Part shown: positions 9,285 through 45,818 of the stretch, one piece after another
Position numbering within the stretch: position 1 is the first letter of the stretch
Layout: each line of letters begins with the position of its first letter
Origin: Candidatus Bathyarchaeota archaeon
Lineage (GTDB): Archaea; Thermoproteota; Bathyarchaeia; Bathyarchaeales; Bathycorpusculaceae
Assembly: GCA_963702095.1 (NCBI GenBank)
Contig: OY969706.1
Location: 1,312,001-1,376,000, forward strand
Direction: 5' to 3'
DNA length: 64,000 nt
Program-made: the position numbers and the translations under genes
Notes under the pieces: generated by a model
Told to the model about the DNA's origin: nothing
What the model saw: the letters and a program-made list of their open reading frames with translations, nothing else
Databases searched by the model: none

Positions 9285-9896
9285 ATGAATAATGAAGAAA
9301 AAGAAAATCTCAAAGAATTCCGAGAACAATTGCGAGCCCAAAAACACATCATGTTCCACCGACGCAACTGGCTCCGCCACAACGCAATGGTCCCCAAAGG
9401 ATTCCTCCGCCACCACGTCCTACAAGCCCTCAACGAAAAACCCATGTCAGGCAGCGAACTCATGGAAGAAATAGGCAAAAACACCGGCAGCCACTGGAAA
9501 CCCAGCCCCGGCTCCATCTACCCCATGCTCGCTTGGCTCCAAGACAACCAATACATAAAAGAACTACCCACTGAGAACGGACTCAAACGCTATGAACTTA
9601 CCCAGAACGGCAAGGAACTCCTAGAAGAAGAAACTAAAGTTCGGGAGAAATTCCGCGAAGACGCCGGTTTCATGACGTTCCCCTTCTTTGACCGAAACCA
9701 AAGCAACATACCAAAAGAGAAAGCGATGGAAGTACGACTGACAATGAAACGTCTTCTGCATACATCCTTAAGCATTGGTAAGACACTGCGAGAAAATTAC
9801 TCAGAAAATGACCTAAACGAAGCACTCAAAATTCTCAACGAAGCCTCAGAAAAATTGGAAGCAATAAATAAGAAACTTAAAGGCGAAAAAGCATGA
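9285..9896 (+). CDS. PadR-family transcriptional regulator
   Basis: PKGFLR...PMSGSEL...WKPSPGSIYPML...YELTQNGK; likely ATG at 9285 after AGGTGA. Confidence 0.9.
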   Translation: MNNEEKENLKEFREQLRAQKHIMFHRRNWLRHNAMVPKGFLRHHVLQALNEKPMSGSELMEEIGKNTGSHWKPSPGSIYPMLAWLQDNQYIKELPTENGLKRYELTQNGKELLEEETKVREKFREDAGFMTFPFFDRNQSNIPKEKAMEVRLTMKRLLHTSLSIGKTLRENYSENDLNEALKILNEASEKLEAINKKLKGEKA

Positions 9897-10906
9897 GTCA
9901 ACCCCAAGACGACGATGTCATAACAGTCAAAGGCTTAACCAAAGTTTTCAACAAAACCCTCACTGCAGTCGACCACATCGATTTCAGCGTTAAAAGAGGA
10001 GAAATCTTCGGTTTTCTCGGCCCCAACGGCGCAGGCAAAACCACAACCATCAAAATGCTCATCACCGTGCTGCGGCCTACAATGGGCACAGCCGAAATTT
10101 TGGGCGGTGACATCGCAAAACAAAGCATGGATGTTCGCGGAGCCATCGGTGTCGTCCCCCAAGAATACACTGCAGACGAAGACTTAACCGGCATGGAAAA
10201 CATACTTTTGTGCGCAGACCTCTACGGCATCCCAAGGCAGGTTTCCAAGAAACGTGCCATGGAACTGCTTAACCTCGTTGAATTAGCCGCTTTTAAGGAC
10301 AAGCGGGTGCAAACCTTCTCGGGCGGTATGCGGCGTAGGCTGGAGTTGGCTTGTGGGTTGATTAACCGTCCTAAAGTGCTTTTCCTCGACGAACCCACCT
10401 TGGGCTTGGATGTGCAGACGCGCGCGGCAACCTGGAACTACGTCAAAATGCTAAAGAAAGAATTCGGCATGACCCTTTTCTTAACCACTCACTACCTTGA
10501 AGAAGCCGATGCACTCTGCGACCGCATAGCCATCATTGACCACGGCAAAATCGTGGTTGTGGGTACTCCGGCGGAACTCAAAGACAACTTAGGCGGCGAC
10601 ATAATCACAATGTCTATTCAGAAAAACGATGACATCACCGACTTAATCCGACGAGTTGAACACGTTAAAGAAGTCAAAAAAGAAAACGGCGACTACATCA
10701 TAAAATCATCCAACGGCGAATTAACCGCCCCACTAATCATTGAAGCCATACGCAAAAGCGGCAACGTCGTAACCAAACTCTCCCTAACCAAACCCACCCT
10801 AAACGAAGTCTACATGCAATACACTGGCAAATCCATGCGCGACGCCGAAGAATCCCGTGAGGGAGTTATGTCGCAGCGGATGACAATGAGGAGGGCACAT
10901 GCATGA
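9893..10906 (+). CDS. DrrA-like ABC exporter ATPase
   Basis: GPNGAGKTT, FSGGMRRR, FLDEPTLGLD. Confidence 0.9.
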   Translation: MSQPQDDDVITVKGLTKVFNKTLTAVDHIDFSVKRGEIFGFLGPNGAGKTTTIKMLITVLRPTMGTAEILGGDIAKQSMDVRGAIGVVPQEYTADEDLTGMENILLCADLYGIPRQVSKKRAMELLNLVELAAFKDKRVQTFSGGMRRRLELACGLINRPKVLFLDEPTLGLDVQTRAATWNYVKMLKKEFGMTLFLTTHYLEEADALCDRIAIIDHGKIVVVGTPAELKDNLGGDIITMSIQKNDDITDLIRRVEHVKEVKKENGDYIIKSSNGELTAPLIIEAIRKSGNVVTKLSLTKPTLNEVYMQYTGKSMRDAEESREGVMSQRMTMRRAHA

Positions 10907-11814
10907 GCCAAGAAACAGAAACTCTGTCCAAGAGCAGATTCCACGGCTTGTGGGCTCTTACCAACAGAGAACTCAAGAAGTGGTATCAACAGCCGTTCGT
11001 CTTTATCATGGGCATAATTCAGCCGATTCTCTGGTTGACTCTCCTCGGTAAAGCTATGAACATTGGCAATCTCTTCTCCGCCAGTTCACTGCCGTCTCTG
11101 CCAGCACTCAACCCGCCGCTTACAGGACCTCAGCTTCAAGCCTTAGGCAGTTACTTCTCAAGTTTCCAGGGCACAGTCATGCAGAACACGTTTGGAACCG
11201 CCGATTACTTTTCATTTATGGCGATGAGTATGGTGGCGTTTACTGTTGTATTCACCACTGCATTCGTGGGCATGTCGGTAGTTTGGGATAAACGGTTGGG
11301 CTTCATGAACAAAGTGCTAAGTACACCTGTGTCGCGATCCTCAATTATACTCTCAAAAGTATTTGCAGCAAGCATACGTGCAATCTTCCAATCTGCCATT
11401 GTCACAGTCGTCGCATTCGCCTTAGGACTTAGCTTAGGAGCAAACTTCGGATGGTACAGCGTCTTTGGAGTCTTCGCCATAGTGTTCCTCATTAGCGTCG
11501 GCCTATCATCGCTATTCACTGCCCTCACACTTCGCGCCACAAGAATGGAGATGCCTCAAGCAATCTTTCAGCTAATCACATTGCCACTGATGTTTGCAAG
11601 CAGCGCCTACTTCCCCATCGCGCAAATGCCATCTTGGCTACAAGCCGTAGCCAGCATAAACCCAATCAGCTACACCATTGACGCAGTTAGACGGCTCATG
11701 GTCTTCAGTGATGGCTTTGGACCGCTAGCACTGGACTTAGCCTTCGTCGGCATCTTCGCAGCCGTTGTCACAGCAATCTGCATTGTGCTTTCATGGAAGT
11801 ACCTAAACAAGTAG
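10903..11814 (+). CDS. ABC-2 permease (DrrB-like)
   Basis: TM helices, NPISY motif, in operon with the ATPase. Confidence 0.9.
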   Translation: MSQETETLSKSRFHGLWALTNRELKKWYQQPFVFIMGIIQPILWLTLLGKAMNIGNLFSASSLPSLPALNPPLTGPQLQALGSYFSSFQGTVMQNTFGTADYFSFMAMSMVAFTVVFTTAFVGMSVVWDKRLGFMNKVLSTPVSRSSIILSKVFAASIRAIFQSAIVTVVAFALGLSLGANFGWYSVFGVFAIVFLISVGLSSLFTALTLRATRMEMPQAIFQLITLPLMFASSAYFPIAQMPSWLQAVASINPISYTIDAVRRLMVFSDGFGPLALDLAFVGIFAAVVTAICIVLSWKYLNK

Positions 11815-11906: not shown

Positions 11907-12602
11907 ATGTCAGTAGCACCCATGCCAGTCGTCGAAGCGATAGGCGTAAAAAAAACTTACATGCTGGGCAAAGTTCCAGTTGAAGCGCTTCGCGGAGTCA
12001 GCCTAAGGGTTGAAGTGGGAGATTTCGTCTCCATCCTTGGGCCTTCTGGAAGCGGCAAATCAACTATGCTCAACCTCATCGGTGCATTGGATAAACCCAC
12101 AGGGGGAACCCTGCGCATCGACGGAGTTGACATCAGTAAACTCAACGATAACCAACTTGCGGATTTACGGTTAAAAATCGGGTTTGTTTTCCAATTTTTC
12201 AACCTGATCCCCCGTTTGACTGCACGTGACAACGTGGAATTGTCTATGTCTATAGCGAATATGGGTAAAAGCCAGCGTCGCCAACGTGCCATAGAACTGC
12301 TGGAAACTGTTGGGTTGAAGGATAGAATCAACCATAAACCCGCTGAACTTAGCGGTGGACAACAGCAACGTGTCGCCATTGCACGGGCATTGGCAAACAA
12401 CCCCAAGTTTCTGCTTCTTGACGAACCCACGGGGAACGTGGATTCTAAAACTGCCGCGGAAGTTTTAGCCTTAATCAATAAACTCAACACAGAAGACAAC
12501 GTCAGCATTATCATGGTAACTCATGATGAAAAACTGGCGCATATGGCTAAGAGAACTGTGCAAATGTTTGATGGAGAAATCAAAGAGGAAGTGGTGAACT
12601 AA
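11907..12602 (+). CDS. MacB/LolD-type ABC ATPase
   Basis: [29 protein letters not shown]. Confidence 0.9.
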
Positions 12603-14019: not shown

Positions 14020-14463
14020 TTGCGGCGTCTCTACCCTGACCAACCCATCGTAGGAATCGGCGTAGTCATCGTAGAGAAACAAAGAATCGTCCTCATCAAA
14101 CGGGGCAACGAACCAGCAAAAGGCAAATGGAGTATCCCCGGCGGCTTAATTGAACTCGGAGAATCACCGGAAACAGCCGTCATCCGAGAAGCCAGAGAAG
14201 AAACACTGCTACAAGTAGATAATCCCCGACTCATAGACGTCGTAAATCAAACAGAGTGGGATACGGATGGCAAATTAAGGTACCACTATGTTATAGTCGA
14301 CTATCTCGTCCACGTAGTCAGCGGAGACATTGCGGCGGCAAGCGACGCCGTTGAACTGCACTGGGTGCCCTTCGACGAGGTGGAAAACTACGATTTGACG
14401 GCGTCTTTTCGCCGCTTCTTTAGAAACAATCGGGAAAGGCTGGAAAAGTTAAGCTCATACTGA
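14020..14463 (+). CDS. Nudix hydrolase
   Basis: Nudix box GGLIELGESPETAVIREAREET. Confidence 0.9.
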   Translation: MRRLYPDQPIVGIGVVIVEKQRIVLIKRGNEPAKGKWSIPGGLIELGESPETAVIREAREETLLQVDNPRLIDVVNQTEWDTDGKLRYHYVIVDYLVHVVSGDIAAASDAVELHWVPFDEVENYDLTASFRRFFRNNRERLEKLSSY

Positions 14464-14524
14464 CTCCAACGGTCATCTGATAGCACCAATATGCACAAAA
14501 ACGACCGCTTGCTTACTGTTGGGC

Positions 14525-15598
14525 ATGAGCCGCTTTACCATTAAGTCACCGGGTGTTTATGTTCAGAACCTACGAATTGGACCTCAACCCATCGAAGGCG
14601 TTCCGACAGCGACCGCCGCTTTTTTGGGGGAAACCCAGACGGGACCCACGTCGCCCACGCTGGTCACCAGTTGGCAGCAATACCAAGACGTATTCGGCGG
14701 TTTCTTCGGCATAGACAAGTACCTGCCTTATGCTGTTGAGGGCTTTTTTGGTAACGGCGGCAAACGCTGCTACATCTGCAAAGTAACTTGTGGTGATTTC
14801 GCTGGGGCTTTAGCCAAATTGGAGCCAATCGAAGAAGTATCCCTTCTGTACGCGCCAAACGCACAAGCCACCCCAAACCTCTGCAACATGCTCATTTCTC
14901 ATTGCGAGCGGCTCAAGCGGTTTTGCATCGTCGATTCACTAAAGGGCGAGGCACCATCAGAAGTTACAAAGCCACAGGCATCCGCCCATGCAGCCCTGTA
15001 TTATCCATGGATTTACGTTTTTCATGATGGCCAGAAGTGTTTGGTTCCGCCCGGCGGATACGTTGCAGGTGTTTACGCTCGCACGGATATTGGGCGTGGA
15101 GTCCATAAGGCGCCAGCTAACGAAGTTGTCAACGGCGCGGTAGACGTAGAGTTTGCCATAAGCAAAAGTCAGGGGGACAGTCTAAACCCACTTGGAGTTA
15201 ACTGCATACGCAATCTGGAGGGCAGGGGCATCCTTGTTTGGGGTGACAGAACCCTCTCAAGCGACCCCGAATACAAGTACATTAACGTTGAGCGACTGCT
15301 GATTTACGTTGAGCAATCTATTAAGCGTGGCACCGAATGGGTGGTATTTGAGCCAGATGCAGAGTCAACATGGGCTAAGGTGAAGATGCAAGTGCAGAAT
15401 TTTCTAAATCAGACATGGCAAAGCGGCATGTTGATGGGCACTAAACCGCAGGAAGCCTATTTTGTGAAGTGTGACCGAACCACCATGACCCAAAACGACA
15501 TCGATAACGGACGCCTAAACATACTAGTCGGCGTAGCACCGGTTAAACCCGCAGAGTTCCTCATCGTAAGAGTAAATCAAAAGGCTATGTACCAATAG
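14525..15598 (+). CDS. Contractile phage-tail/eCIS sheath protein (orphan)
   Basis: PGVYV, FFGNGG, AALYYPW, RGVHKAPAN, LNPLGVNCIR, VVFEP, FVKCDRTT, APVKPAEF. Confidence 0.93.
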   Translation: MSRFTIKSPGVYVQNLRIGPQPIEGVPTATAAFLGETQTGPTSPTLVTSWQQYQDVFGGFFGIDKYLPYAVEGFFGNGGKRCYICKVTCGDFAGALAKLEPIEEVSLLYAPNAQATPNLCNMLISHCERLKRFCIVDSLKGEAPSEVTKPQASAHAALYYPWIYVFHDGQKCLVPPGGYVAGVYARTDIGRGVHKAPANEVVNGAVDVEFAISKSQGDSLNPLGVNCIRNLEGRGILVWGDRTLSSDPEYKYINVERLLIYVEQSIKRGTEWVVFEPDAESTWAKVKMQVQNFLNQTWQSGMLMGTKPQEAYFVKCDRTTMTQNDIDNGRLNILVGVAPVKPAEFLIVRVNQKAMYQ

Positions 15599-15619
15599 TT
15601 CTCTCCTTTATCGGTAAGA

Positions 15620-15808
15620 AGAAGCAATCGATACATAGTTTCACATCCACACCGCGTCCGCTTCTGCGTGGAGGCATGTACGGCGTGTGGAGAAAAATGG
15701 ATATCCCACACCGAAACAGAGGCTGAAAACCGTTGCAAACCCAAAAAGCAGTTGCATTCAGTTGCCGTCTTGTGGTGCCCTGTAAACCGCCACACCCACA
15801 TAAAGAGA
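15620..15808 (-). repeat. Dispersed repeat family A, copy 2
   Basis: Gap-free colinear with 30800-30988 (offset 15180). Confidence 0.95.
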
Positions 15809-15866
15809 CAAAGGAACAACTACTTAAACGGGCCAAGGGTAAAAATAAGAAAGTGTCGGCTTGTTC

Positions 15867-16292
15867 TCACGTTTGGGTTTTGATGGTTCGGTAGGCAAAG
15901 TAAATTATCATTATACTCCAAATTGTCGTAATTCCGATTGCAGTGCTGGGGAAGAACACGTAAGTTGCAAACACCCGTTGTGTTACGGTGAGTGCGATGG
16001 CGAGGTATGGTGCCCATTTTAGATTTCTTCGCAGTCCGAAGTATATTATTGCAAATACTGCTGCAGCCACGAGTGCTTCAGAGACGACGATTGTGAATCC
16101 CAACCGGTAAATGCTCCACTGCGTAGCTGGAATCAACCAGATGCCAACAGCTATTAGGTCCAAGATTATGTTTGCCAGAACAAGACGGCTCAGTGCCTTA
16201 TGCGGTTTGGCACCATACTTACGCGCCGCAATTACTACAAGTACAATAGCTAAAACCGTGAAGAAAATAAGCAAGATTTCGTCTAAACGCAC
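15867..16292 (-). CDS. Hypothetical membrane protein
   Basis: 4-5 hydrophobic helices. Confidence 0.7.
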   Translation of the reverse strand: MRLDEILLIFFTVLAIVLVVIAARKYGAKPHKALSRLVLANIILDLIAVGIWLIPATQWSIYRLGFTIVVSEALVAAAVFAIIYFGLRRNLKWAPYLAIALTVTQRVFATYVFFPSTAIGITTIWSIMIIYFAYRTIKTQT

Positions 16293-45402: not shown

Positions 45403-45579
45403 TAGGAAATAATATGCCCCTCATGGAGTGTATAGGATTAAGTACGCATAACCTCAAGTTTACTCTTTTCCCATGCTTTTACTATTCGAAAACGTGAAAA
45501 TGCGGTAGAAGATTCGCTCTCAAAAAAACCCGATGCTCCACCTTTTGGTTTGAGCCTAAAAAAAGTAATCTTGGGGTTT

Positions 45580-45783
45580 CTATAGGTGAGATTGAGACGT
45601 TTTGGTTTCTCTGTCCCTATACTGTTCTATGCGAAATAGTTTTTCCTCTTGCGATAGTTCGACTACAATGTCACTTTCATCCAATAGCTTTGGAGGTAAC
45701 TTATCTCTTAATATAGAAATAACCAATTGAACATTTTTATCTTTCACAAATTGTGCTACCTGCAAAAGTTGGTTATCGTGCAT
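45580..45783 (-). pseudogene. C-terminal fragment of a DUF2326-like (ABC three-component/Lamassu-type ATPase) protein
   Basis: MHDNQL...VQLVISILRDKLP...ELSQEEKLFRIE resembles DUF2326 C-termini as recalled; AT-rich. Confidence 0.55.
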
Positions 45784-45818
45784 GCCCTTTTGGCAACCCG
45801 ACACGCAACGAGGGCAAG
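45782..45818 (-). repeat. 37-bp perfect inverted copy of 46356-46392
   Basis: Reverse complement equals CTTGCCCTCGTTGCGTGTCGGGTTGCCAAAAGGGCAT. Confidence 0.95.

Follow-up and report, generated by a model that had tools for sequence, protein, structure and literature searches.

Afp2 of the Serratia anti-feeding prophage (6rao_C) and Pvc2 of the Photorhabdus virulence cassette (6j0b_A) are compact sheath proteins of extracellular contractile injection systems (eCIS), and their genes adjoin a tube gene in operons of about 16-20 genes that also supply sheath paralogs, baseplate, spike, cap and ATPase. In a contractile injection system (CIS) the extended sheath is built on the baseplate, starting from a gp25-like protein and with the tube as template, and the N- and C-terminal arms of the sheath protein link neighbouring subunits; the sheath protein alone forms contracted-type polysheaths. 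We describe here an orphan compact CIS sheath gene at positions 14525..15598 (plus strand) of a 64,000-nucleotide stretch of DNA from a Candidatus Bathyarchaeota archaeon (contig OY969706.1, positions 1,312,001 to 1,376,000 of the forward strand), which we call the window. The gene was recognised by its open reading frame (ORF), its Pfam sheath domains, a PDB match and 17 syntenic orthologs. Its product has 357 amino acids (aa), compared with 354-355 in Afp2 and Pvc2, and has the same Pfam domains and no insertion domain. Unlike Afp2 and Pvc2 it stands alone, and no baseplate was found in the genome. We assign a probability of roughly 0.5 to the reading that this sheath is a vertically inherited, selected and domesticated eCIS remnant without a baseplate, whose product is probably a self-polymerising polymer and not an injector.

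The open frame spans 14519..15598 on the plus strand. Read from a TTG it encodes 359 aa; the ATG at 14525, which gives 357 aa, is the start that agrees with the MSR beginning of the sheath orthologs. Pfam recognises Phage_sheath_1 (E = 8.5e-20; 71.7 bits, cut-off 31.4) and Phage_sheath_1C (1.2e-16; 61.1 bits, cut-off 26.9), and the PHROGs tail sheath families match at 2.2e-56. The top PDB sequence match is 9ezm_A (3.6e-106), in which query residues 7-93 align with chain residues 5-90 and residues 95-353 with 308-570 of 574; Pvc2 is matched over its full length (query 7-352 on chain 6-350, 3.9e-57) and Afp2 end to end (5e-46). Judged by these matches, the protein is a true member of the contractile sheath family (Phage_sheath_1 plus Phage_sheath_1C) and, as the alignments indicate, a compact sheath of the Afp2/Pvc2 type, with both terminal arms retained and no insertion domain. 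Across 21 sheath sequences G10, in the PGVY stretch of the N-terminal arm, is nearly invariant, as are K341, P342 and A343 of the C-terminal KPAEF, and E344 and F345 of the same motif are invariant. An AF2 monomer model from these 21 sequences reached a pLDDT of 64, with residues 185-277 below 50; a complex prediction that combined the sheath and tube alignments scored 0.00 in two runs and was counted neither way. An earlier note on this DNA, made from its letters, had described an intact compact sheath of 357 aa between a Nudix gene and a repeat called the family A element, a description that the ORF and the Pfam, PHROGs and PDB matches bear out.

Our comparison with other genomes points to inheritance within one genus. 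The sheath protein as query matched 14 of 61 genomes of relatives. All 14 are of the same genus, and no match came from the 24 genomes that represent 11 other families of the order. In a separate sample of 61 genomes of the genus, this one included, Phage_sheath_1C is present in 27 (G000 denotes this genome, other G labels the genomes of relatives, C a contig and L a fetched locus). Sheath loci were fetched for 25 of the 27, again counting G000; G080 was left out with a weak 24-bit match that adjoins gp25 and Baseplate_J, and G032 with a broken sheath copy that contains stop codons. Among 27 aligned sheath ORFs, 17 are compact orthologs (from 17 of the 61 genomes), 60-68% identical to the window protein at 489-838 bits. 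All 17 loci have flanking genes in common with the window or with each other. In 14 of them the fetched stretch includes the Nudix ortholog, and the remaining three are tied in by the DNA polymerase and its neighbour (G034), by a 141-aa ORF whose ortholog adjoins the sheath (G063) and by the ABC pair (G084, and also four others). In a tree of 42 rows, from which six second-sheath paralogs of the outgroups were dropped, the 17 orthologs form one clade (SH-aLRT 100, stem 0.38). This orphan clade is nested in a large eCIS clade together with haloarchaeal, Streptomyces and Methanosarcina sheaths and the long sheaths of G071, G029:C11 and G062:C9, and it is sister to sheaths of the G071/G062:C9 type. 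Neither gp25 nor Baseplate_J was found in any of the 17 compact-sheath carrier genomes. A syntenic clade of 17 species without these two families argues that the gene is neither a recent copy of an operon gene nor a recent arrival.

This conservation bears directly on the proposal in the earlier note that the gene is a relic moved by element A. A copy of this dispersed repeat of about 190 bp lies just 3' of the sheath gene (15611..15820, plus strand), and copies stand 3' of both the sheath gene and the distant tube operon described below, in the same relative orientation, as might be expected had the repeat brought the sheath in as a fragment. Against transport of this kind stand the synteny of the locus in 17 species at the protein identities given above and the distribution of the element itself: it has 106 blastn matches in the genome (48 plus and 58 minus, the copies 67-91% identical) and shows no orientation bias relative to genes (32 vs 37; 27 vs 42). 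No terminal inverted repeats were noticed by eye in a consensus built from 72 long copies, on which no repeat search was run. We reject the proposal as scarcely credible. The lack of orientation bias also rules the element out as a 3'-end or terminator element. The copy beside the sheath has no Rfam family (only a 17-bit chance match), and its single-strand folding gave no fold signal (z-scores -0.03 and 0.87). At least 40 copies of the element are present in the closest genome, G007.

The sheath has evolved under purifying selection. Over the 17 orthologs omega (dN/dS) was 0.126 under the codon model GY+F3X4+G4, a rough value at a codon tree length of 18.8 substitutions per codon with saturated synonymous sites, and the ten closest ortholog pairs gave 0.09-0.17 at dS 1.0-1.6. 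The Nudix neighbour, which served as a control, gave 0.070, the tube gene of the type found in this genome (type A, below) 0.090 at a mean identity of 83%, and the initiator-like gene 0.205. The earlier note had looked to the phylogeny and dN/dS of the orphan sheaths and had raised a dN/dS near 1; what emerged was a single clade and an omega of about 0.13. It had also drawn attention to altered motifs. These are real, since the protein reads WGDRTL, NVERLL and FEPD where the other 16 orthologs have GARTL, V(R/K/Q/C)RL and FEPN, but they are private to G000 among the 17 orthologs and their number is ordinary: G000 has 4 singleton changes at 72 columns otherwise invariant among the orthologs, within a range of 0-7. 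Thus the motif changes are ordinary divergence, neither a mark of the family nor a sign of an unusual protein. The orphan clade as a whole is set apart from 21 canonical sheaths by a single clade-defining replacement, E200Q, and G000 has E at that position.

The same data allow us to weigh a role in defence, in which free sheath subunits would act as a dominant-negative decoy that poisons assembly by co-polymerising with a foreign sheath, either that of an invading myovirus-like virus or that of the CIS of a neighbour. An orphan structural subunit with intact polymerisation arms would suit such a role, and a HerA/mad8-like cassette adjoins the gene in 9 relatives; the site may be defence-island-like. 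However, the low omega and the nearly unchanged canonical core carry no sign of an arms race, the nearest relatives of the protein are eCIS sheaths and not viral ones, the cassette is absent from G000, and PADLOC (E <= 0.01) gave no match for sheath, tube or initiator. The decoy proposed in the earlier note therefore finds no support in our data, and we regard it as improbable.

The sister species G007 shows what can happen to the locus. Its tube neighbours are 77-96% identical to those of G000, at a dS of about 0.5. Around the sheath, G007 aligns with the window at 85-86% up to 14601 and again from 16249, with 16 bases between, which marks a clean deletion of about 1.65 kb (G007:C5:52100-52400, L173) corresponding to window positions ~14602-16248. 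Lost in this way were the bulk of the 141-aa ORF, the copy of element A and all of the sheath gene beyond its first ~100 nt; in the stub that is left a 2-bp deletion brings a stop into frame. G007 has kept its tube, 95% identical to that of G000 with a dN/dS of 0.067 (0.050 for the neighbouring acetyl-CoA synthetase), and its initiator (dN/dS 0.256). With the sheath deleted and the tube constrained, it follows that the sheath is dispensable and that the tube pair has a role without it, a pattern that weakens the reading of one obligate machine encoded in two pieces.

These events could also mean that a gene once of use to the clade had escaped constraint in the G000/G007 lineage and that the G000 copy is a decaying relic, intact merely by chance. 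The 1.65-kb deletion and frameshifted 5' remnant in G007 are what such a lapse would leave behind, the broken copy of G032 with its stop codons is of a similar kind, and three acidic replacements at well-conserved positions are found in G000 only. In G000, however, the 357-codon frame is intact and matches Pvc2 from end to end, the four singletons and an end branch of 0.29 (median 0.22) are ordinary, and one of the three altered positions is variable among the orthologs anyway. We consider decay unlikely, although it is the alternative to which we give the most weight.

If the sheath worked as part of an injector, other parts should be encoded elsewhere, and the genome is a single contig of 2,937,366 bases with no N, the ends of which do not overlap. 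This gene, at about 1,326,525, is the sole sheath match in it. The only tube match (165 aa; PF06841 1.2e-41, TIGR02241 6.9e-42) lies on the same contig at G000:C1:594177-594674 on the minus strand, some 730 kb away and so not adjacent. Directly 3' of the tube is an ORF of 256 aa, with which it forms a two-gene operon outside the window (G000:C1:593400-594674, minus strand; L002:688-1962). This ORF matches Pfam CIS_tube at 4.4e-6 (27.0 bits at a cut-off of 27) and, at 1.3e-23, a profile built from eCIS homologs of the genus. When its AF2 model (pLDDT 69) was compared with PDB structures by Foldseek, the '7' proteins of PVC, AFP, Anabaena and Streptomyces took the first six places, and Algoriphagus 7aeb_M and the baseplate-initiators of cyanophage A-1(L) made up the rest of the top nine, which span E values of 6.5e-7 to 3.6e-5 and TM scores of 0.35 to 0.47. 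The profile matches and the predicted fold identify it as an Afp7-like tube initiator whose Ser/Ala-rich tail is disordered. A membrane ORF upstream of the tube was set aside as a partner; it stands beside the tube only in G007 and G015.

Beyond these three genes our searches returned no CIS part. Whole-genome Pfam scans at E <= 0.1 found no GPW_gp25, Baseplate_J, Phage_GPD, Pvc16_N, Phage_base_V, eCIS_core or T4_baseplate. A tblastn search of the genome with 38 proteins from the CIS loci of relatives returned only the sheath, the tube, the initiator, generic AAA/PKD proteins and one partial match of a 1062-aa protein (37% over 193 aa, at about 746 kb); with the eCIS_core proteins of G029 and G017 as queries, tblastn gave no match in G000. 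Fifteen profile hidden Markov models (HMMs) from genus eCIS loci, run against 34,373 six-frame ORFs, recovered only sheath, tube, initiator and AAA proteins, and the genus spike-family profile f9 had no match. The AAA matches are Cdc48 and an MIT-AAA (Vps4-like) protein, which rules them out as a CIS ATPase. As positive controls, the same scans across the 61 genus genomes detected gp25 in 7, Baseplate_J in 6 and Pvc16_N in 27. Since four defining eCIS parts were searched for and not found, the system does not belong to the eCIS class. The earlier note had proposed a genome search for tube, gp25, baseplate J and VgrG-like genes, and this yielded only the tube and the initiator; a complete CIS operon elsewhere in the genome, which the note had also considered, was not found. 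Its suggestion of a split CIS holds to the extent that a tube and an Afp7-like initiator lie 730 kb away, and fails in that no baseplate, spike, cap or ATPase was returned by Pfam, tblastn or the genus profiles.

A working but scattered CIS would require a baseplate, spike and cap elsewhere in the genome, too divergent to be detected, with which sheath, tube and initiator assemble. The latter three are true CIS parts, present and under selection, weak matches escape the whole-genome family scan, and in relatives with the second type of tube pair (type B, below) the tube adjoins a Pvc16_N cap-like gene. On the other side, searches with seven Pfam families, 15 profiles derived from the genus and 38 single proteins revealed nothing further, the same scans do detect gp25 and Baseplate_J in genus members with full operons while finding them in 0/17 sheath carriers, and G007 lost its sheath and kept its tube. 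A scattered machine seems to us distinctly unlikely, if less so than the decoy.

Tube matches occur in 27 of the 61 genus genomes, and two kinds of unlinked pair can be told apart. In type A a tube 76-95% identical to that of G000 is paired with an initiator-like gene (G000, G001, G002, G007, G010, G012, G014, G015, G065, G069 and G084); in type B a tube only ~30% identical to it is paired with a Pvc16_N protein of ~195 aa (G008, G030, G063, G066, G076, G078, G079 and G081). Seven of the 17 sheath carriers have a type A pair, seven a type B pair (14/17 with an unlinked pair) and three no tube. Type A tubes group with the tubes of G029:C2/G017-type operons and type B tubes with the one from the G071 operon; the sheath of that operon belongs to the same large clade as the orphan clade. 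A mixed module is found in G062:C6, where a compact sheath of the large clade stands beside an A-like tube and a CIS_tube-AAA fusion. It is conceivable, although we would not bet on it, that the genus has turned CIS parts into a cellular polymer system without a baseplate, with the sheath at one fixed site and the tube plus an initiator or cap at another, all kept by selection through many speciations in genomes that have no trigger, spike or ATPase.

Several further arrangements of CIS genes were seen in the genus. Reduced modules, in which an AAA ATPase and an initiator-like CIS_tube domain form one fusion beside a tube, occur at L068:13983-16998 (G062:C6, where a compact sheath is present too) and at L070:14968-16720 (G067:C4), and G012:C13 carries a bare sheath-tube pair between large PQQ/Ig-repeat proteins. 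Lone Pvc16_N-like genes (171-314 aa) constitute a second kind of orphan CIS-derived gene, in 11 genus genomes without a sheath or tube match (G004, G009, G013, G016, G020, G028, G031, G035, G061, G064 and G072). The otherwise full eCIS operon of G062:C9 may be in decay: its gp25 match is split over two frames (45524-45794), and its AAA ATPase is broken up into three pieces (126-255 aa).

Of the four explanations put forward in the earlier note, a domesticated self-polymerising protein fits best: vertical inheritance in 17 species, an omega of about 0.13 and the retention of core and arms all agree with it, and polymerisation itself is a prediction. The mechanism we propose for the domesticated sheath is as follows. 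Baseplate, spike, cap and ATPase would be missing from the genome, either by loss or from the outset, and with no gp25-type sheath initiator or baseplate the protein would be unable to build an extended, triggerable sheath. It would instead polymerise alone by way of the conserved arms at its N and C termini. The product would be a static helical tube of the contracted type, a polysheath that could not fire, and it might form beside or around tubes nucleated by the initiator. Such a polymer would serve as a structural or scaffolding element and not as an injector, and its gene would be an accessory one.

A number of observations weigh against the domesticated polymer. The G000 sheath copy could be on the same path to loss as that of G007, and no sheath-bearing relative is close enough to G000 for a branch-specific omega, dS between G000 and every ortholog being saturated. 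A search of sequencing runs returned no RNA run that holds the stretch and only two DNA runs, with small shares. Marker completeness of the genome is 90%, which also leaves some room for a scattered machine, and the whole-genome CIS_tube scan missed the initiator that hmmscan found at 27 bits; since a known gene was missed, weak matches do escape, and very divergent baseplate genes could have been missed as well. No tube match was found in the sheath carriers G005, G034 and G068 (a Pvc16_N fragment stands at the end of a G034 contig), and at least two carriers of a tube pair have no sheath (G007 and G015). Finally, by their places in the two trees, the sheath and tube of G000 are from different CIS lineages, so their fit to each other is a prediction.

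The surroundings of the sheath gene are those of a housekeeping region. Upstream lies a Nudix hydrolase gene (14020..14463, plus strand; Pfam NUDIX 7.4e-22), a conserved neighbour that is given here as context. Beyond element A is the ORF of 141 aa on the minus strand (15867..16292), membrane-like and of no known family, which was deleted along with the sheath in G007 and has no Pfam match and no PADLOC match (E <= 0.01). The window further encodes ABC and MacB transporters, a family B DNA polymerase, a Toprim protein, aspartyl-tRNA synthetase, eIF2-beta and similar proteins. We screened 61 window ORFs of at least 90 aa, 54 of them by Pfam at E <= 1e-5 and four at E <= 0.01 (the sheath, the Nudix protein, the MacB permease and the 141-aa ORF), while three ABC-transporter ORFs (9893-10903, 10903-11811 and 11907-12599) were named by homology alone. 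Besides the sheath, no tube, baseplate, spike or phage family was found among the 61 (58 by Pfam), in agreement with the housekeeping setting that the earlier note had described.

In many relatives DinB and fasciclin genes flank the 3' side of the sheath. In G000 they are at C1:1298737-1299745, ~27 kb upstream of the sheath and ~12 kb before the start of the window, so the G000 lineage has undergone a rearrangement on the 3' side of the sheath. The cassette that stands beside the sheath in 9 relatives consists of three genes, for proteins of 181 aa and 356 aa and a HerA-like ATPase that matches the PADLOC mad8 and HerA models (L027:10453-13487 and counterparts in L026, L028, L030, L073, L075, L078, L079 and L081). 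It lies between Nudix and sheath wherever the fetched locus includes Nudix. Species that share only ~70% identity in Nudix share 67-97% in this cassette, which may be a mobile or defence cassette. Its absence from G000 rules it out as a partner of the sheath there.

The accepted view of CIS is of all-or-nothing machines, and in genome surveys a locus counts only if it has the complete core set. The sheath gene described here is intact and constrained at one site in 17 species in which no baseplate was found, and a separate tube is as constrained as a housekeeping enzyme. The sheath is probably kept for a use other than injection. Should the proteins assemble, sheath and tube would have a cellular use apart from injection, making this the first case of their exaptation as a non-injecting filament or scaffold and providing a minimal natural set of sheath, tube and initiator for study and engineering. 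Should they not assemble, the genus would form a graded series, from full operons through two- and three-gene modules to single genes, that shows how CIS decay. Our literature search found no paper on orphan sheaths in archaea or on a conserved orphan sheath in genomes that lack a baseplate; according to the available text of Evseev et al. (PMC9230969), one-domain sheath homologs have been noted in Bathyarchaeota assemblies.

Among described systems, the sheath of the haloarchaeon Halogeometricum borinquense (9EZM) is the best sequence match and comes from an archaeal host, and haloarchaeal sequences share the large clade of the G000 sheath in the tree; as far as the accessible parts of its report go, it is part of a working machine that mediates contact-dependent antagonism (PMC11566945). 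It differs in having 574 aa with an inserted domain of ~215 residues, which the G000 sheath does not have. The orphan hcp/vgrG/PAAR islands of type VI systems, which in the portion of the source available to us are often independent of full systems (PMC13098142), resemble this locus in placing a structural CIS gene away from a main cluster, and differ in that no orphan sheath is described in that portion; in the present case, moreover, no baseplate was found in the genome. The sheath of phage FV3, gp053, forms long stable tubes alone, without baseplate or tube, in the part of the account consulted (PMC6357053). By analogy, a similar polymer may exist here, with the difference that the polysheaths of gp053 are an in-vitro or overexpression by-product of a viral protein, whereas in the archaeon we propose them as a selected cellular function. 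Comparable too are the full eCIS operons of the genus itself (G029:C2, G017:C51, G006 and G071:C7), with tubes 58-69% identical to that of G000, the initiator family in common and alignable sheath cores. To these the operons add T4_baseplate-like, Pvc16_N, AAA ATPase, eCIS_core, Phage_base_V, gp25 and Baseplate_J genes, and their sheaths have 566-817 aa as against 357 in G000.

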